41,483 nt of DNA, taken from assembly GCA_049969855.1 (NCBI GenBank), contig JBMFOB010000013.1, positions 1 through 41,483 on the forward strand, in the 5' to 3' direction. Every line of letters begins with the position of its first letter. The first letter of the stretch is position 1. The notes under the pieces were generated by a model. It searched no databases, had not been told where the DNA came from, and saw only the letters and a list, made by a program, of their open reading frames with translations. A program made the position numbers and the translations under genes. This document shows positions 22,123-41,046 of this stretch, piece after piece. Source of the stretch: Candidatus Bathyarchaeia archaeon. GTDB lineage: Archaea; Thermoproteota; Bathyarchaeia; Bathyarchaeales; Bathycorpusculaceae.

Positions 22123-23079
22123 TTGGTGTTTCTTTTGCTTTTAAAGTTTGATTCTGAAGTTTCTGAGTTTCTTTCTGTTTTGAAGGGTGGAACGCGTAAT
22201 GTTTATCGTCGGGGTTTAGCGTCTTTTCAAGAGTTTTATTCAAGTCACGGTTCTATAAAGGATTTCTTAGATCGTGTTGAAAAAGATAGGTTTTTGCCGA
22301 GAAATCAGAGAGAACGTGTGGATCGCTTAACGCTTAATGGTTTTGTGGCTTGGCTTCAGGATAGAGGCTACAGCCCAAAGACAGTTAGGATTTATGTTGG
22401 GGCTGTTCAAAGTTTAGCCAAATATTTTGACGTTCCAATTAGCTTACGCTACGTGCAATTGCCGACATCTCAGCCAGTTAGCAAAAAACACCCATGGACA
22501 ATTGAAGAAGTATGCTATTTCATAGCCTTAGTGGATAAGCCACTGTATAAGAGTATAGCAGCCTCAATCCTTCAAAGCGGCTTAAGCCTTTCCGATCTTT
22601 TATCCCTAAAATACGGCGACATCAAAGAAGAATTTGAAAGGGGCATAGCGCCTATATGCCTAAGTTTGACACGAAAAAAGACAGGTATAGCCTTCACAAC
22701 GTTCTTGGGCGACTGGGCTGTTAAGTTGCTTACAGATTATTTAGCCGATCGTAAACTTGAGGAAGAAACACCAATTTATCAAGTATCATCGAGGGCTGTC
22801 CTCGCCTATTTCCATAAAACAGCCCAAAAGTTTGCTGGAAAATTTAAAGGCAGAAACCCATACAGCCCTCATTCGCTTAGAGCAGCCCTCCGCACTTTTC
22901 TAAGCGACCACAAAGTTGATCCGCTATATATAGAGTTCTGGATGGGCCATAAAACGCCGGAGCAGCAAAGCGCATACATTAATAAAAGCATTGAAAGCTG
23001 GCGCCAAACATACCGCGAACAAGCAGAACCACACCTAACACCACCACAATATAAAACGACATCATTTAGCAGCAACTAA
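22123..23079 (+). CDS. Tyrosine recombinase (Xer/integrase-like), atypical box I
   Basis: SAM-like N-domain (YSPKTVRIY), QSGLSLSDL, RKKT, PHSLR, WMGH, SAY. Confidence 0.88.
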   Translation: MVFLLLLKFDSEVSEFLSVLKGGTRNVYRRGLASFQEFYSSHGSIKDFLDRVEKDRFLPRNQRERVDRLTLNGFVAWLQDRGYSPKTVRIYVGAVQSLAKYFDVPISLRYVQLPTSQPVSKKHPWTIEEVCYFIALVDKPLYKSIAASILQSGLSLSDLLSLKYGDIKEEFERGIAPICLSLTRKKTGIAFTTFLGDWAVKLLTDYLADRKLEEETPIYQVSSRAVLAYFHKTAQKFAGKFKGRNPYSPHSLRAALRTFLSDHKVDPLYIEFWMGHKTPEQQSAYINKSIESWRQTYREQAEPHLTPPQYKTTSFSSN

Positions 23080-23085
23080 CAGAAA
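23060..23085 (+). repeat. dif-like site S1
   Basis: CATCATTTAG-CAGCAA-CTAACAGAAA; right arm 10/10, left arm 6/10 to consensus; contains the recombinase stop codon. Confidence 0.6.
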
Positions 23086-23139
23086 GTCCTTCAAGCTTAG
23101 GAGTTTGGCTTCTTTTTTAAAACTAGATTAAACGTTTAA

Positions 23140-24231
23140 TTATAATAATATGCTTCCGGATTTCTTGTTAAATATGTATATTTTGTCTTTTCTAATGGTC
23201 ATCCAGATTTTTTCTCCTATTTTTGCCCTAAATGTTGCATTCTCTTTTACTTTGAAAATTGTTTCGCCCATCTTTATGTCTACAATTACTTCAGATCCTA
23301 GTGGTTCTAAGGTGAAGATCTCGCCTTGTATGGCATCTTTCTTTTCCTTTTTCTCTAATGTTATGTCTTCCGGTCTGATTCCAAGGACTAATTCTTCGTC
23401 GATGTTTTTGTCTTTAAGTACTTCAACCAGATAATCTTCAAGTGGTAATTTGAATATGCCTGTATCAAGATAGAGTTTTTCTGCTTCTTTTGTTAAATGA
23501 CAGTCGATGAAGTTCATTGGTGGGCTTCCGATGAATCCTGCTGTGAAAATGTTGCTTGGATGTTGGTATAATTCTTCTGGTGATCCTACTTGCTGAAGTA
23601 TGCCTTGATTAAGGAGGGCTACTCTGTCTGCCATTGTCATGGCTTCGACTTGGTCGTGGGTGACGTAAATTGTTGTTATTCCCAAGTCTTTTTGGAGCCT
23701 TTTTAGTTCAGCTCTCATGTATATTCGCAGTTTTGCGTCTAAATTGCTTAGAGGCTCGTCCATGAGGAATGCTTTTGGCTCGCGAATGAGGGCTCTGCCC
23801 AAGGCGACTCGCTGGGCTTCTCCACCGCTTAATTGTTTTGGTTTTCTATCTAATAAGTGGGCGATTTTTAGTAGCTCGGCAACTTTTTTAACCCTTTGAT
23901 CTATTTCCGAGTTTGCGACAGCTTTAACCTTTAAAGGGAAGGCTATGTTTTCATAGGCTGTCATGTGTGGGTAAAGGGCATAGCTTTGAAAAACCATGGC
24001 TACGTCACGTTCTTTTGGAGGCAAATCGTTGACTAAGGTATCTCCAACATAGATTTCGCCTTCGTCTTGTGTTTCAAGTCCGGCTATGCAACGGAGTACT
24101 GTTGTTTTTCCACAGCCAGAAGGCCCGAGTAGCACCAAAAATTCTTTGTCTTTAACCTCTAAACTTAGATTGTTTACTGCTACAACGTTTCCGAAACGTT
24201 TTGTCAAGTTTTTAAGCAAAATTCTTGCCAT
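23140..24231 (-). CDS. malK: Sugar ABC transporter ATPase MalK
   Basis: GPSGCGKTT, VFQSYALYPHM, LSGGE, DEPLSNLDAKLR, TOBE tail. Confidence 0.95.
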   Translation of the reverse strand: MARILLKNLTKRFGNVVAVNNLSLEVKDKEFLVLLGPSGCGKTTVLRCIAGLETQDEGEIYVGDTLVNDLPPKERDVAMVFQSYALYPHMTAYENIAFPLKVKAVANSEIDQRVKKVAELLKIAHLLDRKPKQLSGGEAQRVALGRALIREPKAFLMDEPLSNLDAKLRIYMRAELKRLQKDLGITTIYVTHDQVEAMTMADRVALLNQGILQQVGSPEELYQHPSNIFTAGFIGSPPMNFIDCHLTKEAEKLYLDTGIFKLPLEDYLVEVLKDKNIDEELVLGIRPEDITLEKKEKKDAIQGEIFTLEPLGSEVIVDIKMGETIFKVKENATFRAKIGEKIWMTIRKDKIYIFNKKSGSILL

Positions 24232-24261
24232 CTTTCCACCTCTTTCTACTTGGGGAGATGT

Positions 24262-25113
24262 TCACCGCTTAACCCCTCCCATTGCCAGTCCCGCCTGCAA
24301 ATACCTTTGAGCAAATAGGTACATAACTATCACCGGAATAGCGTAAAGAAGGGATGTGGCGGCGAATACATTCCAATTGGTTGCTGGGCTTGCGAGGAGC
24401 TGGTTGAGCTCAAGTGGGAGGGTGTAGTTTTCATCACTGAGAAGGATTGTTTGAGCAATTATAAATTCGCTCCAGCTTCCCATAAAGGAGAAGACGGCAA
24501 CTGTAGCTATGCCTGGTTTGGCTATTGGTAACAAAACCTTAAACATAATGTCTAAGTAAGATGCGCCGTCCACGAGGGCTGCTTCATCGAAATCTTTTGG
24601 AATGGTATCAAAATAAGTTTTTAGAAGCCATGTGTTAAATGGCACTCCGCCTGAAGCATAAATTAAAGCAAGTATTACGAGGGAATTAAGGAGATTGAAG
24701 TAGTTAAGGATTGCATAAAGAGCTATAAGCCCAGCGAGTCCCATGCCCCCGGCAAACTGGTTAAAAGCAAAATAACCGTAGAGAAGAGAGCTTCTTCCAA
24801 CAAATTTGAACCGTGAAAAGGCGTAGGCAGAAGGTATGACAAGTATTAATGTTATCGCAAGAGATAGCAGTGAGACGATTAGACTATTAACAAGTCTCGG
24901 AATGAAACGAGATGTAGAACCAAACAAAACATCATTGTATACTTTAAGGGTTATTTCATGAGGTATAAACTCGAATGGTTGAAAAACACTTGTTTTAGGG
25001 CTAAAGGAAGAAATTATAATAACGTAGATGGGAAAAACAAGTATTGCCACTATGACTACTGCAATAAAAGTTGTGAGCACCATCAAAAGTTTCTTATCAA
25101 TCCCTATCTTCAT
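24262..25113 (-). CDS. malG: Maltodextrin ABC permease MalG
   Basis: DEAALVDGA EAA loop; 6 TM segments. Confidence 0.9.
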   Translation of the reverse strand: MKIGIDKKLLMVLTTFIAVVIVAILVFPIYVIIISSFSPKTSVFQPFEFIPHEITLKVYNDVLFGSTSRFIPRLVNSLIVSLLSLAITLILVIPSAYAFSRFKFVGRSSLLYGYFAFNQFAGGMGLAGLIALYAILNYFNLLNSLVILALIYASGGVPFNTWLLKTYFDTIPKDFDEAALVDGASYLDIMFKVLLPIAKPGIATVAVFSFMGSWSEFIIAQTILLSDENYTLPLELNQLLASPATNWNVFAATSLLYAIPVIVMYLFAQRYLQAGLAMGGVKR

Positions 25114-25114
25114 T

Positions 25115-26044
25115 TCACTCCACCGTTATTTTACCCAATTTTAACCCAGCATATGAAAAAGCCAAAATTATTAGCGAAACCAAAACGAAAAAGGTAGCTG
25201 CAACTCCCATCGAGCCGTATATCCCAGGATTTTGGAACGCTTGCTTGTAGCCCCAAACCATTACCAATTCATTTTGGTTTGCGGGTCCCCCGGAGTTGAG
25301 CAGGTATGGAACCATGAACGCTTGGAAGGATGCTCCTGATGTTAGAACTATCCCGAACAATAAAGGTCTCCATATTAGTGGAATAGTTATGTATCTAAGT
25401 CTCTGCCATGCTGATGCTCCATCAACTCTAGCTGAATCGTGAAGTTCGAGTGGTACACTTTGAAGGGCTGCTAGGATGACCGTCATCATAAATGGATATG
25501 CGAGCCATACTTCAACAATGTTGTAAGCTACGAAGGCATTAGTGGCATCATTAAGCCAGTTAACCCTTGGAAGCCCTATCGCTTGCAATATTCCATTTAT
25601 TGCCCCGAAATCATAGTAAAAAAGTCCTCTCCAAGTTAAGATTGATAACACTGCAGGTAACGTCCATGGAAGAATAAGCAGCGACCTTAGAACGCTACGA
25701 CCTTTTATTGTTTGCAGGTTAAAGAGTACTGCCAGTGCTAAGCCAAATAAGACTTTTAATGGAACGCTTGTGGCTACAAATAGGAAAGTTCTTCCGAGTA
25801 CATAATAGAATCTCGTATCTCCGCTGAATAATAATTTTTCAAAGTTTCTTAAGCCTATAAATTGATATTTTCCAGTTATGTTGCCAAAATATGCATCTGT
25901 GAAGCCCAAATAAATAGAGAATATGATGGGATACAAATTGAGAACAAAGAAAATAAGCAGTCCGGGAATTATGAATAGGTATGCCTTATTGGTCTTCCAG
26001 GTGCTTCTCGCTTTGACCTTTCTTTCAGGTTGTTTTTTTCCCAA
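25115..26044 (-). CDS. malF: Maltodextrin ABC permease MalF
   Basis: LILPW, DSARVDGASAWQRLRYITIP. Confidence 0.9.
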   Translation of the reverse strand: MGKKQPERKVKARSTWKTNKAYLFIIPGLLIFFVLNLYPIIFSIYLGFTDAYFGNITGKYQFIGLRNFEKLLFSGDTRFYYVLGRTFLFVATSVPLKVLFGLALAVLFNLQTIKGRSVLRSLLILPWTLPAVLSILTWRGLFYYDFGAINGILQAIGLPRVNWLNDATNAFVAYNIVEVWLAYPFMMTVILAALQSVPLELHDSARVDGASAWQRLRYITIPLIWRPLLFGIVLTSGASFQAFMVPYLLNSGGPANQNELVMVWGYKQAFQNPGIYGSMGVAATFFVLVSLIILAFSYAGLKLGKITVE

Positions 26045-26048
26045 TTTA

Positions 26049-27287
26049 TTAACCCTGATGTTCAGCTAAAGCACTAAGCGCCTTCCCTTGCGCTTCGCTT
26101 AATACAACTTCAGGAGTTCTATCCCCAAAGTTTGGATACAACAGAAACAGCTCATTTATGGCATCTGTTATAGGGGTCCAAACTAAAGCCATTTCGCTGC
26201 TCTTTGGCATGGGTATACCCATTTCAACTTGTTTAGCGAAAGTTGACACTATTTCGTCTGCTTGAATTTCAGGCAATTCAAGAACTTCTTTAAGAACTGG
26301 GATGAAACCAAACTGTAAAGCGCGTTGCTTTATGAACTCCGTGTTTGTCGCAAACCACTTCATAAAGGTGAAAGCCTTTTGTTTATCATACACGGAACTT
26401 GACATCCAAATAACTTTAATTCCAGTGTAAGGCTTGGGCCATGCGTCTATCTCGTCTATCTTTGGTAATGTTGTAATTCCAAAGTTCATATTTAAGCCTT
26501 TGAGGTAGCCTATTCCCCAGGGGCCGTCTACAAGAAACGGCGTTTGGTTTCCAGTGAAAAGTGCAACTTGCGCATCTCGACCAGTATCTGCTGACATGTA
26601 AGGCTGAAACTTTTCCAAGAAATAAGTTATTCCGTTGATGGTTCCCGTGGTGTTCAACCCAGGAGTTTTAGTTGTATCATTAAAGTAGTATCCTCCGAAG
26701 CCGTGGGGCCATGCAGAAACATAATAGGGGTCAACGGGATAAGCTATGCCATACTTGCCCTGATTATTCCAAAAACTTTTCATCATGTCCTCAAGCTGGC
26801 TCATGTTTTGAGGAGGTTCAGAAACCATATCCTTGTTATATAACAAGGCCACAGTTTCTGCAGCATATGGCAAGGCATAAACTGAACCATTGTAAGTGCA
26901 AGCGTCCCATGCAGCATCCAAGAATTTAGATTTTAACTCCTCTGTAACAAATTCGTCTATAGGCGTTATGTATCCCGGTTCAGCTATGGTTCCAACCCAA
27001 TCATGAGCCCACATAAAAAGGTCTGGACCCTTACCTGTTGGCAAAGCCGCTAGAAGTGCGGTTTTCAAGTCTGCCCTGTTGAGAATTTCGACGGTAATAT
27101 TTGGGTAAATCTGCCTAAAGGATGAGTTGACGAAGGATTTTATGAATTGCTCTTCTTCGGGGAGCACTTGAATCCAAACTATAACATCCGCTCTGGTGCT
27201 TTTGGGCCATAGAAAATAAGTTGCAACTCCAGCTACAACTATTATGGCAATTATAATAGTGATTTTCAATTTTCGAGTTACAGTCAA
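26049..27287 (-). CDS. malE: Maltodextrin-binding protein MalE
   Basis: N-terminal anchor, GPDLFMWAHDW, ALPYAAETVALLYNK, DGPW, PMP. Confidence 0.9.
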   Translation of the reverse strand: MTVTRKLKITIIIAIIVVAGVATYFLWPKSTRADVIVWIQVLPEEEQFIKSFVNSSFRQIYPNITVEILNRADLKTALLAALPTGKGPDLFMWAHDWVGTIAEPGYITPIDEFVTEELKSKFLDAAWDACTYNGSVYALPYAAETVALLYNKDMVSEPPQNMSQLEDMMKSFWNNQGKYGIAYPVDPYYVSAWPHGFGGYYFNDTTKTPGLNTTGTINGITYFLEKFQPYMSADTGRDAQVALFTGNQTPFLVDGPWGIGYLKGLNMNFGITTLPKIDEIDAWPKPYTGIKVIWMSSSVYDKQKAFTFMKWFATNTEFIKQRALQFGFIPVLKEVLELPEIQADEIVSTFAKQVEMGIPMPKSSEMALVWTPITDAINELFLLYPNFGDRTPEVVLSEAQGKALSALAEHQG

Positions 27288-27412
27288 CCGTTTTCACCGT
27301 CAATCTTTAATTATCTCGCAATAAGTTTTTATGTGTTTCTTATCCGTTGTATATGTGGAGAGAAACAATTTTAAGATAACTAATGATATAACTTGTAAGC
27401 AGAGGGAAAAAC

Positions 27413-30400
27413 ATGAAAAAAATAGTCTTTACAATACTTTCAATAATATTGGCGCTTAATGTGTTGAACTGTTTTTATCCGGCCTCTGCTGCTGAACAAC
27501 CGTTAAACCTTATTATAATCTGGCACTTCCATCAACCATTCTATTTCGATCCGTCACAAGGAGTTTACATGCTGCCATGGGTTCGGATACATTCCGTATC
27601 CAACTATTACAAAATGGCTCAAATAGTGTCAAATTATCCTCAAATAAAAGTGACATTCACGTTCACTGGTTCTTTGTTGATGCAGTTAAACGATTATGTG
27701 GTAAATAATGCAACTGACATTCACGAGGAGATATCGCAAAAAATTGCAAAGAATGAAAGCTTGACGGTTGACGAGAAATTTTTCATGCTTAAAATCCCAG
27801 GAGGCTTCTTCGACATAAACTGGAACAATATCGTTATGGAGTACGCACGGTACAAAAATCTGAAAATTAAAAGGGACAGTCGCTTCAATCTTTTTAAAGA
27901 TTTGCCACTAGACGAAATGAAACAGCGGATAGTTGAACAATTCAGCGATCAAGAGTTCATAGATTTAGCAACACTCTTTAATCTATTATGGATAGACCCA
28001 GAAATCCGAAACGCTGATTCAACACTTAGTAACATGACGACACGTGCGAATACAGCAAATCCGCTTTTTACAAGGGATGAACTTGCATATGTTTTAGAAA
28101 AACACAAGGAAATAATGGCTATGGTGATACCCGCCCACAAAGCATTACAAGATGCAAACCAAACAGAGACCATACCATCGCCATATACGCACCCAATCAT
28201 GCCTTTACTAGCTGATTTTGGTTGGCAAGATGACTTGGATGCACAAATAAAGAAGGGCATAGAACTTTACGAGACCTACTTTAATAAGACTCCAGCGGGA
28301 ATGTGGGCTCCCGAAATGGCTGTAAACGAGGAATCTGTAAGAATTATGGCTGAAAACGGAATTTTGTGGACTGCAACAGATCAAAACGTTTTGGAGTTGG
28401 CAGGCGTAAACATAAGCGACCCAATAGAATTATATGCTGGATACAAGGTTGACGTAACCCCCAACATAAATATTCTATTTAGGGACACCGATCTTTCAGA
28501 CTCCATAGGTTTTAGATACGCCAGCAAAACCACAAGCGAAGCCATCGACGATTTCGTGAACAGAATACTCACCATCGAACAGTACAACACTGATGGCAAA
28601 ATGGTGCTCACAATAGCCCTTGACGGCGAAAATCCGTGGGAGAGCTATATTAACAATGGAGACGATTTTCTACATGCTCTATATGCAAACTTAACGCAAC
28701 TTCAAAACGAGGGCAAAATAAGAACCATAACCCCTCACGAATATTTTGCAACATACACAATAGATAAGGTTGTGCCTACAACCACACAGGAAGTTCTCAA
28801 CCTAACAACATTAGACATATCCAACATAACCAGATACGAACAACTGCCCTTCACAATCAAGAACCAAAAACTACCAGAAAGCTCCTGGTCGGGAAAAGAC
28901 ATGCGCTTAAGAATTTGGATAGGGGATAAGCAAGAAAACGTAGCCCACATGTGGGTAAAGGCTGCCAGAGAAAACCTAACAGCATACATAAATGCTAATC
29001 CTGGATGGAATTCAACAGAAGCCATGGACGCTTTATATCGTGCCGAAGCCTCTGATTGGTGCTTCTGGTATGGTCATGACATGGGAAGCCCAGAAACCTT
29101 TGACCCGATTTTCAAAGTTTATTTGAAAAGAATCTACGAACTTATTGGACAAACGCCTCCAGACTATTTAGACGCAAAATTCTATCCGGATGGAGAACCA
29201 AAGGCGATAATAGAAGCAAAACCATCGCTGGCAACGCCTACAATTGATGGAATAATGGAAGCTTTGGAATGGAAGGGAAACTTCACACTTTCAGTAAATG
29301 GAACTTGGATGGACAAGGTGGTGATAAGCATGGATTATGAAAATTTATATCTGGCAATTATACCACAAGCTAATGTAAATATAACAGAACAATTCGGGAA
29401 AGAACTTTTCATAGGAATTTACACCTCAAGCCCAAGAATAAGCTATAGTCCATATAAGCTTGAGTATAACGTTTGGGCAAGATATCAGACTCTACGAAAT
29501 GAAACGCTTGGATTTGCCATATACACAGAGGCCAGCATATGGTTTAATGAAACAACCCAAATCAGCCAAAAGTTAAAGCTGTCAATAGCAGATGGAAAAG
29601 GCAATTTTACAACAATAGGCGAACTCAACACAGTTGCAATAAACGAAACTATTGAAATGGCTATTCCTTTTGCAAACTTGACACTTCAAGGAAAAGACCC
29701 AGCCTATTTGGGTGTGGTTGTGGCAGAAAACCAGACCATAATCGATATGTCTTCAAAATACGACACGCCAGTATATTTCCAAGTGGCAAGCGCTCCAGTG
29801 TGGGGTGAAATCATATTCCAATATCCAGACCCAGAGGGCGACGATTACGGCCCTGGAACTTACACCTATCCAACAAGTTCCGAGTTTGTTGATGGATGCT
29901 TTGATCTGCTCAACTTTACCGTAAGCAAACTGGATACAAACAATATGTTTAAGTTCAAATTCAAAGTTTTAGGCGGCAACCCATGGAATGGCCCCTACGG
30001 CTTCTCACTACAATACATACACGTATACATCGACACGGATGGTGTTAGCGGTTCCGGAAGAACAGATACCTTCGGAGCAAGAGTTAACGTATCAGCTGCT
30101 GATGCATGGGAGATCGCTTTACGAATAGGCCCAGGCTGGTCTGGAAGCAACATAGTAACTTTTGCCAACGGCACCGAATTAACCGAAGTCATGGCAATCG
30201 AGCCGGAAGGAGAAGACACTATTGTGGCGAAGGTTCCTATGGACATTATTGGAGAGGTTAATGAAACCTGGAAATACGTTGTATTAGTGCTTAGTTGGGA
30301 TGGATACGCCACAAACAAAATACGAGAAATAGGCGTGACAGCCCAAGCCTATCTTGGAGGGGGAGCTGAAGCGGATGCTGTCATTGCCGGCGTTCAACCA

Positions 30401-30634: not shown

Positions 30635-30666
30635 CATACACAATAAACACATTCCCCTTTTTTTAA

Positions 30667-32823: not shown

Positions 32824-32910
32824 GGGTCAAATGGCGGCTCTATTTAAATGGAAAAGGGTAAAAATTATATATGGAAAGGAAGAAAACATTAGCGCTGTGG
32901 AGATGTTAAA

Positions 32911-33750
32911 ATGAAAAACGTGAAACTTAAGTTACTGTTTACGATGGTAGTGCTTTTCTCGATTTTAACGCTTCCAACCATGGCGTTACCGAATACTGGA
33001 AGTGCAGAGTTCTCTGATGCAACAGGTGATGTCTTTACTGATTACTGCAACGATGACGGATACTTTCCGATGAGGGATATTACTGGTTTAAACGTCACAT
33101 GGGACTCGACAACACTTACCATAAAGTTATCCGTGGTAACGTTAACGAACACAACAGTTGCATGGAACAATACTGGGTTCGCAATAACCATCGGAAATGG
33201 GACTGATGGCAATGAATGGTGGCCGCAATGGTCATGTACGCATTTTAACCAAACAACAGCCGCTACTGCAAATTGGACATATACAATACTTGTACAAAAT
33301 GTGACCGCCGAAGGTGGACTTGCATACTCTTATTTATGCAACGTGACATGGCAGTATACTCCATTCACTGACTTAGGAATTACTGTAGAAATACCAGACA
33401 CGCCTGCAAACACTATTGTTGTCAGTGTACCATGGAACGCAATAGGAGGTTTTAGCGCCTACGGCGACGAATTTTATGTAAGTGCAGGATCGTTCTTCTG
33501 CTATGCATATGGACCAGCAGCGACTGGAGACATCCTAACGAAATACCTTGATCATATAGGTGCCGAAAGTGATAGGATAATTATCCCACAACCTAGCTGG
33601 GGTCACGATCCTGATGGATTTGACAAGTACGAGGTAATTATAGGTAATTATAGCGTCGTACCGGAATTTCCAATAATATGGCTCACCTACATATTATTAA
33701 TTGCCATTGCCATCCTAATGTTAGTCAAAAATAAAATCTATAAGCAGTAA
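32911..33750 (+). CDS. Secreted beta-rich (DOMON-like) protein with PEF-CTERM sorting signal
   Basis: Signal peptide, FSDATGD, many N-x-S/T sequons, VPEF + TM + basic tail. Confidence 0.75.
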   Translation: MKNVKLKLLFTMVVLFSILTLPTMALPNTGSAEFSDATGDVFTDYCNDDGYFPMRDITGLNVTWDSTTLTIKLSVVTLTNTTVAWNNTGFAITIGNGTDGNEWWPQWSCTHFNQTTAATANWTYTILVQNVTAEGGLAYSYLCNVTWQYTPFTDLGITVEIPDTPANTIVVSVPWNAIGGFSAYGDEFYVSAGSFFCYAYGPAATGDILTKYLDHIGAESDRIIIPQPSWGHDPDGFDKYEVIIGNYSVVPEFPIIWLTYILLIAIAILMLVKNKIYKQ

Positions 33751-33814
33751 CTTCCCTTCTCTTTTTAATCCGTTTAGCCTACTCACTCCGAAGAATGTCA
33801 AAGGAGGGTTTACA

Positions 33815-35089
33815 ATTAATATCCTGATGACTACGATGGAGTATGACATCATTAAGGTTGGAGGCTTATCGGCGGCGCTAACTTCTTTAGCTGATGTTAT
33901 GAAAAAATACGCGAATGTTAACATAATCCTTCCACGAAGCGGTTTTAAACCTTCATGGAAAAAATTGGAAGAAAAAGAGTATCCAGATTTAAAAATGGAA
34001 ATTTTTGACCACAACGGCGTAAAAGTTTACACGCTATCCAATGACATTCTGGATGAAGAAGAAATATATCCCGAACCAGCAAACGAAAAAGCAATTAAGA
34101 AAATTGACGAGTTTTGCAGATGCCTATGTGAGGTTGTAAACGAAATAAATTTTGACATAGTTCATATGCATGACTTCTTCACCTACAAAGCCATGGACAA
34201 ATTTAAACAGATGCACAAACCAGTACTTCTAACAATCCATAGATTACATAGAGAATACCCTAACTGGTTCGCTGGAGAAAAACTGGCCCTAGAAAAAGCT
34301 GATTACATAACAGTTGTTGGGAAATCCTATTACCAAGAAGACGAGAGGAAACTGTTTGAAAAATACGAGGGCAAGGTGACATGTGTGTTTAATGGGATAG
34401 ACACAAAATTTTGGAACACTCAAAAATCTTCGTACCCAAATGTTTCGCGGAGAGAACGCAGAAAATTAATTCTACAAAAATATGCTCTCTCTGACGGAGT
34501 CTTATTTGTTTATGTCGGAAGGTTCGACCCAGCACAAAAAGGAGTTGACATCTTACTTAATGCTAGCAATCATTTTTTGAAAAGCGAAGATGTGAGAATG
34601 ATCATTGTTGGAGTTGGAGATAAAAAACTAGAAGCGTTGTCTAAAAGCTTGGAAGCATCCTATCCGTCAAATCTAAGGGTAATAAACAAACTTCTCCCAA
34701 AAGAAGATGTGAGAGACCTATATTCCAGCGCAGACTTTGCGCTCATCCCAAGCATCTTTGAGCCCTTTGGACTTGTCCAATTAGAAGCTATGTCTTGCGA
34801 ATGCATTCCCATAGGAAGCAGAACAGGAGGAATAAAAGACACAGTGGTCTCTTACGAAGACAATAAACAAAAGGCAACAGGATTCTTAGTGGAAAAGGGA
34901 AATTCTAAAGCCCTTTTAGAAACTATGAGAAAGGCGCTGGCACTTTATAAGGAAAACCCTCAAATTATAGAAAGGATGCGAAAAAATGGACGGAAAAGAT
35001 GCGAAAAAATCTTTCAATGGGATGTTTCAAGCCGCAGGTACCTTGAGATTTACAAAAAGCTTTTAGAACAATCCAAAAGTGGTGCATAA
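33815..35089 (+). CDS. Glycogen/starch synthase-like glycosyltransferase (GT-B)
   Basis: KVGGL, HMHD, GRFDPAQKG, EPFGLVQLEAM; start ATT 33815 or ATG 33827. Confidence 0.88.
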   Translation: MNILMTTMEYDIIKVGGLSAALTSLADVMKKYANVNIILPRSGFKPSWKKLEEKEYPDLKMEIFDHNGVKVYTLSNDILDEEEIYPEPANEKAIKKIDEFCRCLCEVVNEINFDIVHMHDFFTYKAMDKFKQMHKPVLLTIHRLHREYPNWFAGEKLALEKADYITVVGKSYYQEDERKLFEKYEGKVTCVFNGIDTKFWNTQKSSYPNVSRRERRKLILQKYALSDGVLFVYVGRFDPAQKGVDILLNASNHFLKSEDVRMIIVGVGDKKLEALSKSLEASYPSNLRVINKLLPKEDVRDLYSSADFALIPSIFEPFGLVQLEAMSCECIPIGSRTGGIKDTVVSYEDNKQKATGFLVEKGNSKALLETMRKALALYKENPQIIERMRKNGRKRCEKIFQWDVSSRRYLEIYKKLLEQSKSGA

Positions 35090-35092
35090 ACA

Positions 35093-36853
35093 TTGAAAAA
35101 AGTGTGGATTTTTTCTTTTGAATGCGCAGGCATAGTCAAAGTCGGCGGCTTAGGAGAAGCCGTATATAACATAGCTAAGCATCTGGCTGATCAAAAATTT
35201 GAAGTCAAATTGTTCATGCCGAGCCATGGGGCCCACACTAATCTCAAGTTGATAAAAAGTTTACAATTTAGAAAACGCGATGTCATAATTAAAGGAGTTA
35301 TAGGAGATAAAAATTTTCTACCATATAAAGCACCTTTCCGATATAAAATTGGCGTTTACGAGGGTTTACTTAAAAACTTCAGAGTTACGCTATTTTACGG
35401 GTTAAACAATGTTACAAGCAAAATCTTGGATGACGCCATGGTTTATAGGGCAACACAAATTGAAGATAAAGCGCTTCTTCTTGCTAGAGGAATTTCCGGA
35501 TACATCGATCACCTACCTACTCTAGAAGATGGTTTCCCAGACATTATCCATGCCCACGATTACCACGCAATACCAGCCACTGTTTTAGCCAAACAAAAAC
35601 TCGAAGAATACAACCACAAAGCAGCAATGGTTCTTACAATACACCTCTTAAGCAACAAAAAAGTTTCATGGAATTACCTAGGCGAAAACTGGTGTGGAAT
35701 AAAAAATAAACCGCACCCAGTTTACCTTGATGGAACAAAAAACATTCTATCCCACAAGCAACTCTTAAAGAAAGCAAAACTGAAGCTGGAAGCCTTCGGT
35801 GCAATGGAAGCCCATGTGTTAACAAGTGTAAGTCAAAACTATTTGCATGAGGAGGTTCTACCACTTGTTGGCAGAGGTTGCAGAGAAAAAGCGAGGTTCC
35901 ACTGGAATGGTTGTGACTGGAATTTTGAGCCCCTACTCAAAGAAACTCTTAGGAAATTTAGCAACGATCTTCAAGAGATTTCGTCGCCGGCAAGTATAAG
36001 AAGGTATCATCTGAGAAAATACTTCTTAACAGAGGCTTTAGGAAAACTTAACCCAGAAGAACCAATTTTAGAGGAAGGCAAAGTTAAGGAAACCATTTAC
36101 AAGCTAGAGTATGCTCCTTTTTGTGGAAAAGGCAAAGTTGAACCCTTCAACGAAGATGGCCCAATGGTTTTAATGACAGGAAGATTAACACAACAAAAAG
36201 GTGTTGATCTTATTTTCAAGGCAATACCAAATGTTCTTAAAGATATTCCAAAAACGAAGTTTATTCTTTTGCTTTTGCCACTAGAAGAAGAAATAGGTTT
36301 AGTAAAAAAATTTGCAAAACTCACACACAAATATAACAATTCGGTAAGAATACTATTTGGCAAAGCTCCAAGCATTTACACACTAGCGCATTTATCCTCC
36401 GACGTATTTGTTTGTCCAAGTAAGTGGGAACCATTCGGCATAATGGCCCTAGAAGCAATGGCAACTGGAAACCCCGTTGTAGCAACGAAAGTTGGAGGAC
36501 TAAAAGAAATAGTTATTGATGCAAGGCGGCATCCGAAAAATGGCACAGGAATTCTTGTCCCTAAAAACGACTATAAAAAACTTGCAGTCGCCATTTCTTC
36601 ACTGCTAGCAATAATGCTAACTTCAGAAGAACTCCAACGAGAAGGTAAAGTAGACAATAAAAAATTGAATGCGCTGGCTACTCGAATAACTTACGAGAAT
36701 CTCAGAAAAGTCATTGCTAAACAACCATCCTATGGACTAATGCTAAGGGAAAATGTTATCCAGCGTGTTGAAACGAACTTCAGATGGAATAATGTTATTA
36801 AGATGATAATAAAAGCATACGAAAAAGCAAACAGAATACTAAAGCAACTCTAA
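35093..36853 (+). CDS. Glycogen/starch synthase-like glycosyltransferase, long form
   Basis: KVGGLGE, HAHDYH, GRLTQQKG, EPFGIMALEAM. Confidence 0.88.
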   Translation: MKKVWIFSFECAGIVKVGGLGEAVYNIAKHLADQKFEVKLFMPSHGAHTNLKLIKSLQFRKRDVIIKGVIGDKNFLPYKAPFRYKIGVYEGLLKNFRVTLFYGLNNVTSKILDDAMVYRATQIEDKALLLARGISGYIDHLPTLEDGFPDIIHAHDYHAIPATVLAKQKLEEYNHKAAMVLTIHLLSNKKVSWNYLGENWCGIKNKPHPVYLDGTKNILSHKQLLKKAKLKLEAFGAMEAHVLTSVSQNYLHEEVLPLVGRGCREKARFHWNGCDWNFEPLLKETLRKFSNDLQEISSPASIRRYHLRKYFLTEALGKLNPEEPILEEGKVKETIYKLEYAPFCGKGKVEPFNEDGPMVLMTGRLTQQKGVDLIFKAIPNVLKDIPKTKFILLLLPLEEEIGLVKKFAKLTHKYNNSVRILFGKAPSIYTLAHLSSDVFVCPSKWEPFGIMALEAMATGNPVVATKVGGLKEIVIDARRHPKNGTGILVPKNDYKKLAVAISSLLAIMLTSEELQREGKVDNKKLNALATRITYENLRKVIAKQPSYGLMLRENVIQRVETNFRWNNVIKMIIKAYEKANRILKQL

Positions 36854-36900
36854 ATGTTTAATAATCTATATATTACCAAAAATTAATCCTTTTGGCAAAT

Positions 36901-36926
36901 GTTCCGTTAACAGCGACTAACAGCAT
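36901..36926 (+). repeat. dif-like site S2
   Basis: GTTCCGTTAA-CAGCGA-CTAACAGCAT; arms 8/10 and 8/10. Confidence 0.7.
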
Positions 36927-37095
36927 TCTCAGGGTTGTGAAATAAAAACTGTAAGAGGGTGTTTGGAGAAATAGTGAAATGTTATTTATAACTAATTGAT
37001 GTGTCATAGTTCTGGGTTTTGGCTTTCGTTTTTATGTTCTCGCCATGATGGATGGCACAGTTATTATACATTAAATTTAGGGTTGTGTGTCAGTC

Positions 37096-37905
37096 CTACA
37101 CAAGTCTTATTTCCTCAATACCTATTCCACGCATGTTTCTTAATAGAGTTACTACGAGTATAAACATGGTAACAGTCCACGCTATCATGGAACATGCCGT
37201 TAACGTAATATCCATGAGCTCTTTCCCGCTTGTCGTAAAGAAACCTCCGGTTACGGGCTGTTTGCCGGAAAAATAATGGTAAAATAGGGCTGAGATACAG
37301 TTGAATGGCGATATGTAAGCGAATATTTTTAAGTCTATCCAGAGTGAGGAGTAGGATAGAAAGGACAACATTAGGGGGATAAATGTTACAAAAGAGGCTG
37401 ATTTTGGAGCTCTTAAAACCACAACTAAAAGGCTTAGAAAAGCTGAAAAGGCGTAGAGAAATATTGCGGTTAGAAATGTGGCGGTAAGCAGACCTAAAGG
37501 GTTTTCAGGAAGAACCAGCATTCCAAATTTGTGCCAAAACACTCCAATCATAGAGCAGAACATTATCGCAGACACTATTAGCAACGCTATAAGCGAGGAG
37601 GCCAAGTTTTCCGCTAGAAACTTTGAGGGTGAAAGCTTCGTGTATTTTGTTACAAACTTTATTGACTTTGAGGAGTGGATGAGTGCGTCCGCTATTCCCG
37701 TTGCCACAGCGGAAAGGCTTATGATGGTTAGGCTTCCATAGGCCATTGATGTATAATCTTTAACAACCTCTTCATAGGCGGGTACGTTGGCTCCAAAAAC
37801 ATACGCCCACATTAAAACCCAATACTCTACAAAGAGTATGGCCCAAAAAATGAGGGCTGGATTGAAAAGTAAAGCTTTAAGGCTTAAGCTGAAATATTTC
37901 GTCAA
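37096..37905 (-). CDS. ABC-2-type permease (6 TM segments)
   Basis: Hydrophobic profile, YISPF, coupled to the ATPase. Confidence 0.75.
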   Translation of the reverse strand: MTKYFSLSLKALLFNPALIFWAILFVEYWVLMWAYVFGANVPAYEEVVKDYTSMAYGSLTIISLSAVATGIADALIHSSKSIKFVTKYTKLSPSKFLAENLASSLIALLIVSAIMFCSMIGVFWHKFGMLVLPENPLGLLTATFLTAIFLYAFSAFLSLLVVVLRAPKSASFVTFIPLMLSFLSYSSLWIDLKIFAYISPFNCISALFYHYFSGKQPVTGGFFTTSGKELMDITLTACSMIAWTVTMFILVVTLLRNMRGIGIEEIRLV

Positions 37906-38708
37906 CTCTTTTTCGCCTCTAATGCAAGTTCATATACCTTGTCAAGGCTTTCTAAGCTTAAAATTGGTTTTCCACGGCCCTCTTTAACGAGGCTTATAGT
38001 TTTGCCTGAAACCGTCATTTTGATGAGGGGCTTGGCTTCTTCTCTAAGAGATAGCTTGGCTTTCAACAGTTCCTCGACTGAAACTGAGCCGTAGAGGGCT
38101 CCCTCAAACATAAAGAAAGCCTTCCAATCGGAGAGGTTTCTAAGGAGCCATGTTTCATGAGTGTTTAAGATTATTATTCCATCATAGTTTGCGAGGTATT
38201 CTATAAGTTTATTTTTCCTAGCAGGGTCTAATTGTTCGAAGGGTTCGTCTAAGAGAACGTGTTTTGCACGTGCGGAGAGGGCTGTTGCCGTGCAAACAGC
38301 CTTCGTCTGGCCAGCTGAAAGCTCATGCAATTTCTTGCCCTTTAAAAAGGCTTCACTTATTCCCAAATCAACCAGAATTTGGTATGCGAAGGCTTTATCC
38401 CCACCAGTTAAATCTGCGTACAACTTTATCAGGTCGGAAACTTTAATTGACAAGAGAGACAAAACCTCCGGAAAGTTTGCCATAATAACTCCCGTTTTTG
38501 CGTATATGTCCTCTACGCTAACACCGTCCACCAAGATTCTGCCTTTCCTTATACTCGTAAGCCCACACAAAGCCCTAAAAAGAGTTGTCTTTCCAGAACC
38601 GTTCGGCCCCAGAATAAGGCTTTTACAACCAAAGACAGCGTTAACATTCTTCAAGACAGGCTCCTTAAGCTTTCCATACGAAACCTCAAGATCTTCAACG
38701 TTTATCAT
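37902..38708 (-). CDS. ABC transporter ATP-binding protein
   Basis: GPNGSGKTT, LSAGQ, LLDEPFEQLD, NTH. Confidence 0.9.
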   Translation of the reverse strand: MINVEDLEVSYGKLKEPVLKNVNAVFGCKSLILGPNGSGKTTLFRALCGLTSIRKGRILVDGVSVEDIYAKTGVIMANFPEVLSLLSIKVSDLIKLYADLTGGDKAFAYQILVDLGISEAFLKGKKLHELSAGQTKAVCTATALSARAKHVLLDEPFEQLDPARKNKLIEYLANYDGIIILNTHETWLLRNLSDWKAFFMFEGALYGSVSVEELLKAKLSLREEAKPLIKMTVSGKTISLVKEGRGKPILSLESLDKVYELALEAKKS

Positions 38709-38826
38709 TTATATTCCACAACACTTTCTAATTCAACTAATCAAAATAAAAACTTATAGAGCCCAAAAAATGAAACATCAAACTATGAATGGGTGGATTC
38801 GGGAACACCTACTATATATCGATTAG

Positions 38827-38852
38827 TTTCCGTAAACGATGACTAAAAGAAG
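38827..38852 (+). repeat. dif-like site S3
   Basis: TTTCCGTAAA-CGATGA-CTAAAAGAAG; arms 8/10 and 8/10. Confidence 0.75.
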
Positions 38853-38904
38853 GGTTCGATGTATCCCCTAAGACAAAGTCAATCAAACGTGAAACTTTTA
38901 TGGC

Positions 38905-38930
38905 TCTCTGTTGATAACGTCTGACAGGAC
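38905..38930 (+). repeat. Degenerate dif-like site S3b
   Basis: TCTCTGTTGA-TAACGT-CTGACAGGAC; arms 8/10 and 7/10. Confidence 0.45.
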
Positions 38931-38945
38931 TTCGCAGATAGTTTC

Positions 38946-39677
38946 TTATTGTTTTTTATAGAGTTGCCTTCCAGTATAAGCAGCCTTCCAGTATAAGCAG
39001 CCTTCTCCTTCCTCTCCTGTATAGGGATCTCTTACACTTACGTCGATGCGAGTATACCTAATTTTTCCTTCGCTATTTGGCAGTCTTAGATGGAAAGCTG
39101 CTTGGATTAGATAGGCGATTAGTGAGCGTTTTGGCAAGGTTAATTGAGCCAGATAGGCGATTAAGGAATAAGCTCCATCTGCATATTCTTTCACTCGGTT
39201 AAGTTCGAGTATCTTAACAGGCTTATTATTGATTTTTACTTCAATGTCATCTTTTGAAAGGTCAGGCGCAATGTCAATAACCTCGATCTTTTTGCCGGTC
39301 TTCTTCTTTTCAAACTCTTGATATCTCTTCAGGCTCATGGGTCGAAAGTAAATAATCAGCGATGGATATGCCCCTTGAGGTCTAAACGCATTCATTGCAT
39401 AAACTTCAATTCCACCGATACGTGGATTTATATGTAAGTCTTGGTATGCGGGAACGTTCCAAGCCCAATATTCAAGATATTTTATCTTGTAATCTTTGTA
39501 TGCCATCAAGGCCATATACAAGCCTTTTTTCACTGAAATTTTGTATTCGCCAGCACTGTTTGTATGGGTTTTATAAACTGCTTCGAAACGGTCATTTTTA
39601 ACTTCCACAACAGCTCCTCGGAGTGGGTTATTCGCAAAGTCCGTTACTTTGCCAAAGATTCTGATTTCTTCAACCAT
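38946..39677 (-). CDS. Hypothetical protein with N-terminal carboxypeptidase-regulatory-like beta-sandwich
   Basis: GKVTD...PLRGAVV...TNSAGEY pattern. Confidence 0.75.
   Translation of the reverse strand: MVEEIRIFGKVTDFANNPLRGAVVEVKNDRFEAVYKTHTNSAGEYKISVKKGLYMALMAYKDYKIKYLEYWAWNVPAYQDLHINPRIGGIEVYAMNAFRPQGAYPSLIIYFRPMSLKRYQEFEKKKTGKKIEVIDIAPDLSKDDIEVKINNKPVKILELNRVKEYADGAYSLIAYLAQLTLPKRSLIAYLIQAAFHLRLPNSEGKIRYTRIDVSVRDPYTGEEGEGCLYWKAAYTGRQLYKKQ
38966..39005. repeat. 17-bp tandem duplication
   Basis: (GCCTTCCAGTATAAGCA)x2 plus GCCTTC. Confidence 0.9.
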
Positions 39678-39771
39678 TCATTTCGCTCTCCAGAAATTCA
39701 TTAGATATCGTTGACAAGCTTTCAAATTTACGGTTTACGAAATGAAACTTTGGATTTAACCACCAGAAGTA

Positions 39772-39797
39772 TTTCTGTTAACGATGACTAACCGAAA
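39772..39797 (+). repeat. dif-like site S4
   Basis: TTTCTGTTAA-CGATGA-CTAACCGAAA; arms 10/10 and 9/10. Confidence 0.8.
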
Positions 39798-39922
39798 ACC
39801 TAAGCAGGAAATATTGTTGCCGGTTAAATTTTATCCTAAAAATCAAAATTTTGCTCATGGAATGAATTTTATTTCAAACTTGAAAAGAAAATGGGAGTTA
39901 ATTTTTGGTTCCGATGGTTTGG

Positions 39923-40081
39923 TTATACAGCTTTTATCCGCTTGACTATGGGCGATCGCACCTTTCGTGCAACTTTGTAGAGGCAGTTTGGGCATTTCTA
40001 GTTGAGCATTTCCCACTTTTCCTTTGTAGTTTTATAACCGCAACGCACACACTCATAAATCACCCCATTAAGCTCCGACAC
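39923..40081 (-). pseudogene. rpoP: RpoP/Rpo12-like Zn-ribbon gene with in-frame TAG (not in ORF track)
   Basis: SD GAGGGTGA then GTG; MSELNGVIYECVRCGYKTTKEKWEMLN*KCPNCLYKVARKVRSPIVKRIKAV; TAG at 40000-39998. Confidence 0.8.
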
Positions 40082-40353
40082 TTTATCACCCTCAAAAGAA
40101 AGAACAGTTTCTCACACACGCTTGCCAGAAATAGACGTTCATTTTTAGAATTCGTTTTATTATTTAACTCTTTCTGCCAGATCATAAGTCGAAATAAAAG
40201 TTGTATATTGGGTCGGAAAAAGTTACGTGGTTGCAAAATGCGAATAGATAGCTCACTCTGGCTAATGCAAAAAGATGATGTAAATAAAAGTTAAAACTGA
40301 CTTTCGTCTAATTTATAAAATTTGCAGGATGTATATTACCACGGGATGAAGTT

Positions 40354-40983
40354 ATGAAAATATGTGAATATCAACATGATCCCTGCAAAGTTGAACATTG
40401 CAAGTTGGTAGAAAGCAATAAGAACTTGAAAAACTGCGCTTTGTATGACTTTCTAAAAATTATTGACGAAGAATTAAAACGTTATACGGAGGAAAAGGTC
40501 CGAATCGAATCCTTAAAGAAAAGTTTTGTTGAGGCGTGGAATAACAAAAAGGAAAAGAGAGAGTCGGTGGCTATAGGTCGAGCAACTGGGGATGCTTTTG
40601 CAAAGTGGGTCATAGAACAGGCAGGGCTTCATGGGAAAAGTGAGAAAGACAAGAAGGTTAAATTTGGCCCTGTAGATTTTACTGTGGATTATGTAATTCC
40701 TTCTGCTCAAAATCCAAAAGTAATCTTAGAGATCAAAAAGAATTCTGACATTCAGCACACATTTGCATTAAAAGGTCTTTTAGATTATTCACCAAAATAT
40801 AGGAAATTGGGTTACATTACCTTCAAAGAACGTGAAAACAGCAAAGTCGTTAAATTACTCGAAGAATTCAAAAGTGACCCTAAATACAAATCGCGATTTA
40901 ACTATTTCATTATAACGGGACCAAATGGTTGGTCAAAAACAATAGAAAACTTAAAGGTATTTTGTAACATAATTACCAGTTGA
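40354..40983 (+). CDS. Putative PD-(D/E)xK nuclease (restriction-endonuclease-like)
   Basis: TGDAF...VDYVIP...VILEIK pattern. Confidence 0.55.
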   Translation: MKICEYQHDPCKVEHCKLVESNKNLKNCALYDFLKIIDEELKRYTEEKVRIESLKKSFVEAWNNKKEKRESVAIGRATGDAFAKWVIEQAGLHGKSEKDKKVKFGPVDFTVDYVIPSAQNPKVILEIKKNSDIQHTFALKGLLDYSPKYRKLGYITFKERENSKVVKLLEEFKSDPKYKSRFNYFIITGPNGWSKTIENLKVFCNIITS

Positions 40984-41020
40984 GAAAAGACATTGATACT
41001 ATCATTTGGATTTCTTTACT

Positions 41021-41046
41021 TTTCTGTTAGGAGACATTAAAAGAAA
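41021..41046 (+). repeat. dif-like site S5
   Basis: TTTCTGTTAG-GAGACA-TTAAAAGAAA; arms 10/10 and 9/10. Confidence 0.75.

Follow-up and report, generated by a model that had tools for sequence, protein, structure and literature searches.

Arrays of gene cassettes that are built by site-specific recombination are known from bacteria, in the form of integrons and of the dif modules of Acinetobacter. The attC sites of integrons are hairpins of about 55-140 nt that act as folded single strands, and recombinases such as Cre, XerA and XerH act on sites made up of an arm, a spacer and a second arm. In engineered cassette exchange, heterospecific lox or FRT sites share common arms and carry differing spacers that do not cross-recombine, and a segment is swapped rather than deleted. 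Tycheposons have partial tRNA repeats as boundaries, each element carrying its own recombinase. Passages of published reports describe integrons in archaeal metagenome-assembled genomes (MAGs; bioRxiv 10.1101/2022.02.06.479319), pdif/dif modules of Acinetobacter that are moved by XerC/XerD (PMC13141974, PMC6449649), an archaeal dif site of two 11-nt inverted repeats around a 6-nt spacer (PMC8371274), and tycheposons, or tRNA-anchored islands, with a tyrosine recombinase and cargo for nutrient uptake and the surface (bioRxiv 10.1101/2020.12.28.424599). The archaeal cassette arrays that we found reported in the literature are bacterial-type integrons only, and we found no description of arrays such as the one presented here in Bathyarchaeia; the relevant passages of PMC8371274 and PMC11697101 hold none, although the supplementary integrase-family tables of PMC8371274, which lay outside the search, may list the family. 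Here we analyse a complete contig of 41,483 bp (C13, hereafter the window) from the MAG of a hot-spring Candidatus Bathyarchaeia archaeon (G000; 1.28 Mb in 49 contigs, 41% G+C), in which the gene for a tyrosine recombinase (int) is followed by five short palindromic sites, S1 to S5. Comparison of this locus with its relatives makes it probable that these core-type recombination sites divide the region into exchangeable gene cassettes, with the adjacent integrase (Int) as the most likely catalyst.

The five sites lie on the plus strand at 23060-23085 (S1, spacer CAGCAA), 36901-36926 (S2, CAGCGA), 38827-38852 (S3, CGATGA), 39772-39797 (S4, CGATGA) and 41021-41046 (S5, GAGACA), the last being the final array site on the contig. 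Each spans about 26 bp, with inverted arms of 9-10 bp around a 6-bp spacer, and all five share a common orientation; by their spacers they belong to the classes 'a', A, B, B and C discussed below. S2 to S5 are intergenic, and S1 overlaps the stop codon of the int open reading frame (ORF, 22123-23079): its left arm is int coding sequence, and the int stop TAA forms positions 18-20 of the site. This explains the poor left arm of S1, because that arm encodes the C-terminus of Int and the stop is the TAA of the right arm. A first-pass annotation of the window had proposed these coordinates and spacers, all of which we could verify, together with a consensus that fits S4 and S5 with one mismatch each and departs from S1, S2 and S3 by four mismatches each. 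When up to three mismatches are allowed, this consensus matches S4 and S5 only, two matches against 0.01 expected, and the complementarity between the two arms of S1 to S5 amounts to 6, 6, 5, 8 and 8 of 10 positions. Since a strict consensus scan recovers just these two sites, we used position weight matrices (PWMs) instead. Scored with a matrix built from the other four, each of the five sites reaches 15.5-26.3 bits. In the rest of the genome the five-site PWM finds six matches of at least 20 bits, where 20 third-order Markov simulations gave 0.6 on average and never more than 2; with a threshold of 14 bits the rest of the genome shows no excess (10 against 12.65 expected), and as weak matches are therefore at background, only strong sites were used. 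An arm-only PWM, which disregards the spacer and was derived from 12 G000 sites, finds 10 places of at least 18 bits in this genome against 0.08 expected (maximum 1 in 12 simulations), and five of these are S1 to S5, in the final 18.4 kb of the window, at 19.0-26.5 bits. By comparison, the best score in window 1-23000 is 8.6 bits, which confirms the earlier statement that the housekeeping half of the window has no copy of equal quality. Conservation is limited to site positions 2-10 and 17-25, the flanks being at background composition, and only 42 of 281 departures from the arm consensus are matched in the opposite arm. As the arms vary independently, half-sites for a protein fit better than a maintained hairpin, and a reading as attC-like hairpins was rejected on this lack of covariation.

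If these sites are points of recombination, homology between related loci should end at them. The 600-bp flanks of all sites were compared, and many site pairs turned out to be homologous on one flank only. In three pairs with more than 90% identity, the homology runs up to the site and ends within it or at its edge (0-2 nt). Thus, two B sites on contigs C1 and C2 of the relative G012 share a left flank (91.7% identity across 600 bp, rising to 100% in the final 70 bp) that extends as far as site position 20, and are unrelated from there on; the A sites of G012:C2 and G004:C74 share a left flank of 96.8% identity up to position 25, followed by unrelated sequence; and the B sites of G004:C45 and G004:C65 share a right flank of 99.4% identity from position 2-3, their left flanks being unrelated. 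The differences within the sites of such pairs fall in the arm on the unrelated side, and mapping of the crossover arm by arm is suggestive only. For sites next to int, the int side is conserved and the other side variable in every one-sided comparison listed. At the opposite end of the array, S5 and a site of G004:C34 are of the same class and have the same right flank (a DGC-domain gene, 88% identical in DNA) next to unrelated left flanks. Cassette 3, the segment between S3 and S4, provides a further case. Its 243-aa protein was found in one of 41 genomes, namely G000 itself, and two metagenome contigs, L071 and L072, carry 90%-identical copies of the gene directly beside int. In window orientation, L072 reads tRNA-like element, int, site, 243-aa gene and B site; it matches window 22045-23084 (83%) and window 38841-39791 (87%), and 11 nt within one site belong to both matches. 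The left arm of this site resembles that of S1, and its right arm equals that of S3. Because both matches meet in a single site, the 15.8 kb from S1 to S3, with the sugar cluster and the ABC pair, is absent from L072, with breakpoints in the sites. The homology of both contigs to cassette 3 starts inside S3 (window 38841) and stops at S4 (window 39791), and L071, which stems from a second assembly, has the identical junction and continues beyond the B site into a 459-aa ORF unrelated to the window. Synteny breaks were among the tests that the first-pass annotation had suggested for its cassette array, and here the breaks of the high-identity pairs fall 0-2 nt from the sites and those of L071/L072 lie inside S1 and S3 and at S4. 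On the strength of these alignments, we regard it as very likely that the sites act as recombination junctions.

Not all homologues of cassette genes are accompanied by sites. None was found near 13 more distant homologues of cassette 3 (at most 78% identity), nor near the cassette genes of G026, G036 and G037, and the homologues of cassette 2 in G026 and G037, with about 72% DNA identity, stand in site-free surroundings. Such homologues make the cassettes look like captured ordinary genes. In G004, of the same genus, the sugar-cluster block (window 23154-36855, 82-85% identity) is found on another contig in a different context, and the start of the first gene of cassette 4 has a homologue (76% in DNA) inside a cassette of another array, G004:C25. 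Several candidate junctions were set aside. The joints 36923 to 39774 and 36923 to 41020 have 22 nt on the short side and join non-homologous site positions, and were left uncounted because they are unreliable; loose ends at 36902 among the Logan contigs match the flank of another site on C1 and reflect cross-matching of repeats; and a presence/absence difference between G000 and G002 next to tRNA-Thr on C1 is uninformative, as one of its boundaries is the tRNA and the other lacks a site. The sole public run that contains the window, in the form of Logan contigs, is labelled as a hot-spring metagenome. A contig of run X1 that shares about 92% identity with the ABC pair (window 37315-38276) has a depth of 57.7 against about 8.8 for the contigs of the window itself, around sixfold, from which it follows that a related, more abundant organism in the sample carries cassette 2. 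Two loose ends at 38792, 35 bp before S3, may mark where the homology of this organism's DNA ends.

The frequency of the motif was assessed in relatives with a degenerate 24-nt pattern, TTCNNTTARNNNNNNYTAANAGAA, allowing up to one mismatch, counting forward and reverse matches and taking the reversed pattern as a control. Matches exceed the control in G000 (19 against 1), G001 (19 against 0), G002 (16 against 0), G004 (116 against 5), G012 (37 against 2), G008 (18 against 4) and G031 (15 against 2), while many of the 41 relatives have 0-3 matches and most other genomes are at background; 11 genomes qualify as site-enriched, defined as at least five matches and three times the control. As such, the motif is above background in G000 and in a patchy subset of its relatives, as expected from the earlier proposal. 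The exact pattern was found in 12 of 201 genomes drawn from the whole class, with controls of at most one per strand; the five with at least four exact matches all belong to family f1, a few exact matches are found in f11, and one genome of f24 has site-like ones. This patchy distribution is unlike that of a housekeeping operator, and in our preferred explanation the array belongs to a system confined to a few lineages of Bathyarchaeia. An A-class site had no exact matches in viral contigs.

The spacers proved to be informative in their own right. We chose 105 sites by their arms alone, from G000 and 57 fetched loci, and 84 of these use just seven spacers: GAGACA (21 sites), CAGCGA (19), CGATGA (16), ACGTTA (13), CACCTC (7), CTGCAA (5) and CGTGAA (3). 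Neighbouring classified sites have the same orientation in 50 of 51 pairs, the sole exception having the palindromic spacer TTGCAA. Furthermore, the classes follow one another in the order a<A<B<C<D<E/F<H, with 44 ascending pairs, three of the same class and three that descend, and none of 5000 permutations of the labels reached 44 ascending pairs. The array of the window reads a A B B C, and those of G012 read a A B C ... D E on one contig and A B C D E on the other. In three genomes that were unused for defining the order (G117, G070 and G068), all eight adjacent pairs, as read from the site listing, obey it. Discrete spacer classes in a conserved order are new beyond the first-pass annotation. 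All but two of the 105 sites are intergenic, and they hold no fixed position relative to promoters, which had been named as a sign of an operator: the flanking genes are in tandem in either direction (28 and 21), divergent (23) or convergent (22) at similar frequency. The slots between the sites range from empty (97-186 bp) to as much as 13.8 kb, and most of the genes in them are unrelated from one array to the next. Cargo that can be named comprises sugar and peptide uptake, ABC transporters and methyltransferases, as well as large secreted or surface proteins with parallel beta-helix, CARDB or peptidase C39-like domains. An empty slot is also found elsewhere in G000, where an A-class and a C-class site lie 174 bp apart on C1 (85611-85836; L065 3112-3337). 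The 3' end of a tRNA-Thr(cgt) with an intron is 176 bp away, and next to this tRNA genomes of the same genus differ. A conserved protein of about 136-188 aa, without Pfam or NCBIfam family, adjoins the last sites of arrays (classes H, E and F) at L040 12372-12887, L041 5571-6080, L033 11892-12401, L016 5843-6253 and six more loci, and seems to be the sole gene that is part of the scaffold rather than of the cargo.

The product of int (22123-23079, plus strand) is a 318-aa tyrosine recombinase (Pfam PF00589, 1.4e-10). Its AlphaFold2 model (pLDDT 87.7) has a two-domain fold, with a core-binding and a catalytic domain and no arm-binding domain, for which XerA 5hxy (E 9e-8), Tn1549 Int, Cre, the lambda Int core and XerH are the top Foldseek matches, all at probability 1.00; the integron integrase VchIntIA (2a3v) appears at rank 22 among the fold matches. 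By sequence, the nearest structure is XerA 4a8e (E 1.8e-5). The best NCBIfam match is XerA_Arch (NF040815), at 50.9 bits against a cut-off of 220; this model is described as 'site-specific tyrosine recombinase/integron integrase', and no dedicated IntI model was run. There are 254 homologues at E <= 0.001, mostly 57-91% identical and, where named, nearly all from Bathyarchaeia (one is labelled Fervidobacterium and one Norongarragalinales); the related loci, too, almost all carry the name Bathyarchaeia. Residues R184, K186, H250, R253, H276 and Y285 are invariant in the family. No relative of Int was found in the plasmid collection, and the sole match in the phage collection was psiM2, with 21% identity. 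Int is thus a two-domain Xer/Cre-like tyrosine recombinase of a Bathyarchaeia-specific family. Its gene is framed by the system, the site overlapping its stop codon, and this geometry recurs. Among 13 loci of relatives with group-A integrases, eight have a site no more than 50 bp from the 3' end of int and two have one about 570 bp downstream, the remaining three having no site of at least 14 bits after int. For the sister group B, a site with the spacer CACCTC lies about 120-140 bp upstream of int in seven of the eight loci with upstream sequence. The link to the adjacent recombinase drawn in the earlier annotation is borne out by these positions, and they tip the balance slightly towards the small adjacent Int as the enzyme. 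For at least six of the int loci a contig end is no more than 1.2 kb away, which is what breakage of assemblies in variable and repeated DNA would produce. Contig C33 of G000 (6,260 bp) carries a second copy of the system. It consists of an int paralogue (66% identity) with a site over its stop codon in the same geometry as S1, a minus-strand gene for 966 aa and an A-class site, after which the contig stops; part of a third recombinase is located at C33:8-271. A second integrase family was encountered as well, with members of 372-486 aa that are 40-53% identical to each other and score about 84-111 bits on the XerA model, in G000 (C15:5068-6327 and C36:3234-4352), G012:C1 (at about 21.5 kb and 935.5 kb) and G004:C45:9184-10644; the copy on G000:C15 adjoins another 26-nt fragment of the tRNA-Leu 3' end.

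The window falls into a left part of 21 kb with housekeeping genes and a variable region of 18 kb that follows tRNA-Leu. Two tRNA genes (ARAGORN, Rfam), tRNA-Thr (21366-21439, minus strand) and tRNA-Leu(tag) (21525-21610, plus strand), precede int, the latter serving as the chromosomal anchor of the left edge of the variable region; these two are also the only Rfam hits that reach threshold in the window. Cassette 1 (23086-36900) has nine genes on both strands, assigned by Pfam to a sugar cluster: a MalK-type ABC sugar transporter (ATPase, two permeases and substrate-binding protein) on the minus strand, and a GH57 enzyme with a glucodextranase C-module, an alpha-amylase, a protein of unknown type and two glycogen-synthase-like glycosyltransferases on the plus strand. 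Cassette 2 (36927-38826, minus strand) consists of an ABC ATPase (37902-38708, Pfam) and a 269-aa protein of no known family (37096-37905), and cassette 3 (38853-39771, minus strand) of the single 243-aa gene (38946-39677), with a CarboxypepD_reg domain (Pfam). Cassette 4 (39798-41020, plus strand) has two genes, 39905-40294 and 40354-40983, that match no Pfam or NCBIfam family. Beyond S5 follows the DGC-domain gene (41175-41483, minus strand, Pfam PF08859), which is truncated by the contig end and forms the conserved right flank of the array. Of the functional labels given earlier to these modules, those of the sugar cluster, the ABC ATPase and the DGC gene are backed by Pfam, while 'RpoP-like + nuclease' for 39905-40983 is not. 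The layout is best explained by cassettes that carry their own promoters, run in either orientation and comprise one to nine genes each. Two site-like sequences of lower quality should be mentioned. One, at about 38905-38930 (coordinates read by eye rather than scanned), is degenerate, with the D-class spacer TAACGT and less than 9 bits on the arms, and falls within cassette 3, in the stretch from S3 to where the 243-aa gene stops; its copy in L072 reaches 14.1 bits, and it may have been left over from a previous location of cassette 3. The other, at C12:39329-39354 of G000, scores 16.9 bits with the five-site PWM, has a B-like spacer and is found 4 bp from the 3' end of tRNA-Ala(ggc).

Immediately 5' of int, at 22041-22116 on the minus strand, lies a tRNA-like element of 70-76 bp with acceptor-like and T-arm-like parts and, in the window, an encoded CCA. 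The final 26 nt of tRNA-Leu(tag) recur without mismatch, in inverted orientation, at 22043-22068, and the element includes a half-site-like AACAGAAAA. This copy of the tRNA-Leu 3' end is inverted rather than direct, and the far end of the region lies beyond the contig. The element is found directly upstream of group-A integrases at eight loci (L004, L006, L008, L010, L015, L020, L022 and L023), and in inverted orientation about 0.1-0.8 kb downstream of group-B integrases at six (L012, L013, L014, L018, L021 and L033). ARAGORN predicts no tRNA in the nine copies from relatives that were tested, nor at the copy in the window; Rfam gives a weak tmRNA-like match, with an E-value of 0.0015 that is below gathering. 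The element may mark the two outer ends of the whole island. Between the group-B integrases and the element, L033 has a 263-aa ORF (13598-14389, minus strand) with homologues in L031 and at C16:5076-5524 of G000 and a weak match, below cut-off, to a TFIIB-type zinc ribbon. In the window, the 430 bp between tRNA-Leu and the inverted 26-nt copy (21611-22040) may hold a small minus-strand ORF of no recognised family, and a listed minus-strand ORF at 21893-22243 overlaps the start of int and has no Pfam match.

How would such an array work? As duplex core sites, each would receive a simple tyrosine recombinase as a dimer that cleaves where the 6-bp spacer meets the arms, and recombination between like sites on different DNA molecules would exchange the DNA to one side of them. 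We infer that this would mainly take place between sites of the same spacer class, within a genome or between molecules, in which case two same-class events would swap one slot. Directly repeated like sites, for example S3 and S4, could excise or integrate a circular cassette, and cassette 3, being flanked by identical spacers, is therefore the best candidate for circular excision. Differing spacers on neighbouring sites, on the other hand, would protect the array from collapse, and stability of this kind would explain the conserved order of the classes. The full version of this scheme, in which incompatible spacers in a fixed order define slots that are refilled by two same-class crossovers under a recombinase with a serine at the Arg-I position, is tentative, and we would sooner doubt than accept it.

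Several observations weigh against one or another part of this interpretation. The junction in L072 pairs an A-class spacer with the right arm of S3, and some cassettes are located between differing classes in different genomes, such as a 145-aa gene that occupies the A|B slot in one and the B|C slot in another; strict class specificity can therefore not be the whole story. Classes and order, moreover, were defined from the same data. The copy of the sugar cluster in G004 has no site of at least 14 bits at either boundary and is evidence for cassettes that derive from ordinary chromosomal blocks, not for site-mediated transfer, and the difference between G000 and G002 beside tRNA-Thr on C1 ends at no site on either side. 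As regards the enzyme, the Arg-I position, as aligned to GLRVSEL of XerA, is a serine (Ser155) in 28 of 28 sequences, and in at least 98% of 111. Int was found (E <= 1e-30) in 6 of the 41 relatives, and in three of the 11 site-enriched genomes (G000, G004 and, with stops, G008); there is none in G012, which is 98% complete in two contigs and has 37 matches, and five further site-bearing genomes have one intact int, two remnants with stops and two none. The alternative catalyst named in the first-pass annotation, host XerA, does not pass the XerA_Arch cut-off in any of five genomes (G000, G001, G002, G004 and G012; the best scores are 173.7 bits in G004 and 110 in G000). A member of the second integrase family is found 4-5 kb beyond the E-class sites in two G012 arrays, and about 400 bp from an 'a' site on G004:C45. 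Finally, all support comes from assembled contigs, and the MAG and metagenome loci are interrelated and partly from the same springs.

Part of these observations would follow if the sites were junctions on which another recombinase acts, the small int being a cassette or passenger itself; candidates are the Xer-like integrases of 415-486 aa or a host enzyme. Site-rich genomes without small int, including the 98%-complete G012, the serine at Arg-I, and the second integrase family that adjoins some arrays (G012, G004:C45) and has two copies in G000 all speak for it, as does the framing of int in the manner of a cassette, with S1 over its stop and, by our reading, a degenerate site-like sequence over its start. 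However, in each of two sister groups the site keeps a constant place relative to the small int (at the stop codon, and about 120-140 bp upstream), whereas the large integrases are at no fixed distance from sites, and five of six catalytic residues of the small Int, including the tyrosine, are invariant; we consider this division of roles rather unlikely. Another possibility is that the sites are leftover attachment sites of integrative elements that inserted serially beside a tRNA gene. The array does begin next to tRNA-Leu and int, with a tRNA-Leu 3' fragment beside int, another site pair is found 176 bp from tRNA-Thr on contig C1, and the common spacer of S3 and S4 is what the integration of a circle would leave. 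Yet the sites are not derived from tRNA, the tRNA fragment is inverted, and the cassettes have no integrase, replication or virion genes. Moreover, neighbouring sites mostly differ in spacer and keep one order in many genomes, which serial insertion at a single attachment site would not yield, and slots may be empty at 97-186 bp. Tandem accretion of this kind is accordingly quite improbable.

Explanations that do without recombination at the sites receive even less credit. Operators or boundary elements of a dimeric DNA-binding protein, with the mosaicism caused by unrelated processes, would fit a 10-6-10 palindrome, which is typical of dimeric regulators, as well as the intergenic location of 103 of 105 sites, and an Int-like protein with a serine at Arg-I could bind DNA without cutting it. 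What counts against operators is that the sites have no fixed position or orientation to gene starts, that discrete classes of asymmetric spacers are conserved across genera despite unrelated flanks, that in L072 and the high-identity pairs only 0-2 nt separate the end of homology from the edge of the site, and that the distribution among close relatives is patchy; in our view there is little chance that this is what they are. For chance similarity, or for contigs that were mis-joined at short repeats, one could cite that all data are MAG or metagenome assemblies, that many int loci are at contig ends and that S1 to S3 match the originally claimed consensus weakly. An artefact of this sort is nonetheless hardly credible: the motif is enriched over simulations and over the reversed control in several independent assemblies, the same classes in the same order are found in the two-contig, 98%-complete G012, the 26-bp sites differ from each other and are shorter than the usual assembly words, and L071 and L072 come from two assemblies. 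The array of cassettes built by site-specific recombination, as first suggested for this window, is thus the reading that motif frequency, site position and synteny breaks favour.

If this is correct, genes for sugar uptake, transporters and large surface proteins move as cassettes in these archaea, which would explain how uncultured Bathyarchaeia swap accessory genes, and also why assemblies break beside these integrases. The site motif would then be a simple marker for the flexible genome in MAGs. Should slot exchange hold true as well, it would be a natural form of recombinase-mediated cassette exchange and a main route of gene flow in these Bathyarchaeia, and specificity by spacer class would provide orthogonal recombination sites and a recombinase derived from a thermophile, with a possible use in genome engineering.

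Compared with the archaeal XerA/dif system, the sites share the design of two inverted arms around a 6-bp centre (10-6-10 here against 11-6-11), and the nearest structures to Int are those of XerA. The resemblance ends there, as G000 has at least 10 strong sites against one dif, clustered by a tRNA gene and int and marking variable DNA, and Int is far below the XerA cut-off and has a serine at Arg-I. The affiliation to Xer/dif that had been proposed for the sites therefore holds for the arm-6 bp-arm architecture, and membership of the family is not established (Int at 50.9 against 220 bits; XerA above the cut-off in none of five genomes). With simple recombinases of the Cre/Xer type in general, Int shares the two-domain fold and departs from the catalytic set R-K-H-R-H/W-Y by Ser155 at Arg-I. 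IntDOT of CTnDOT has a serine for the first catalytic arginine as well and tolerates spacer heterology; it also has an arm-binding domain and complex att sites, and no sequence relationship to Int was shown here. Shufflons and other invertible segments have inverted sites, unlike the array, in which 50 of 51 neighbouring pairs are direct repeats. The ordered spacer classes suggest the same logic as engineered cassette exchange, which is man-made and uses two sites, whereas here the arrangement would be natural, with up to seven or more classes in series, and some junctions contradict the class specificity that it supposes. Tycheposons likewise form variable islands by a tRNA gene with a tyrosine recombinase and carry nutrient-uptake and surface cargo, but the boundaries here are palindromic and non-tRNA, and the cassettes are without recombinases.

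Closest in organisation are the pdif modules and the integrons. As in the pdif modules of Acinetobacter, which are shuffled between replicons, arm-6 bp-arm sites bound multi-gene accessory modules and the junctions are located at the sites. The system described here is however chromosomal and archaeal, with a dedicated adjacent recombinase and ordered spacer classes; its neighbouring sites are direct repeats in 50 of 51 pairs where pdif sites alternate, and no Xer above the XerA_Arch cut-off that could serve as host enzyme was found in the five genomes searched. As in integrons, the gene of a tyrosine recombinase edges a one-directional array of short palindromic sites between unrelated accessory genes, and cassette content differs among close relatives. 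Conversely, the sites here are of the duplex type, 24-26 bp long, conserved in sequence and uncompensated between the arms (42 of 281), which sets them apart from attC; a site lies at the 3' end of int or about 120 bp upstream of it, rather than as an attI beside a divergent Pc promoter; the cassettes comprise one to nine genes on both strands rather than mostly single, promoterless ORFs in one orientation that are expressed from Pc; and the spacers come in classes of fixed order. In its working, the system is thus nearest to integrons and to the dif modules of Acinetobacter, while it fails the defining features of both, and if our interpretation is correct it represents a lineage-specific archaeal system with another type of site, another recombinase family and multi-gene cassettes.

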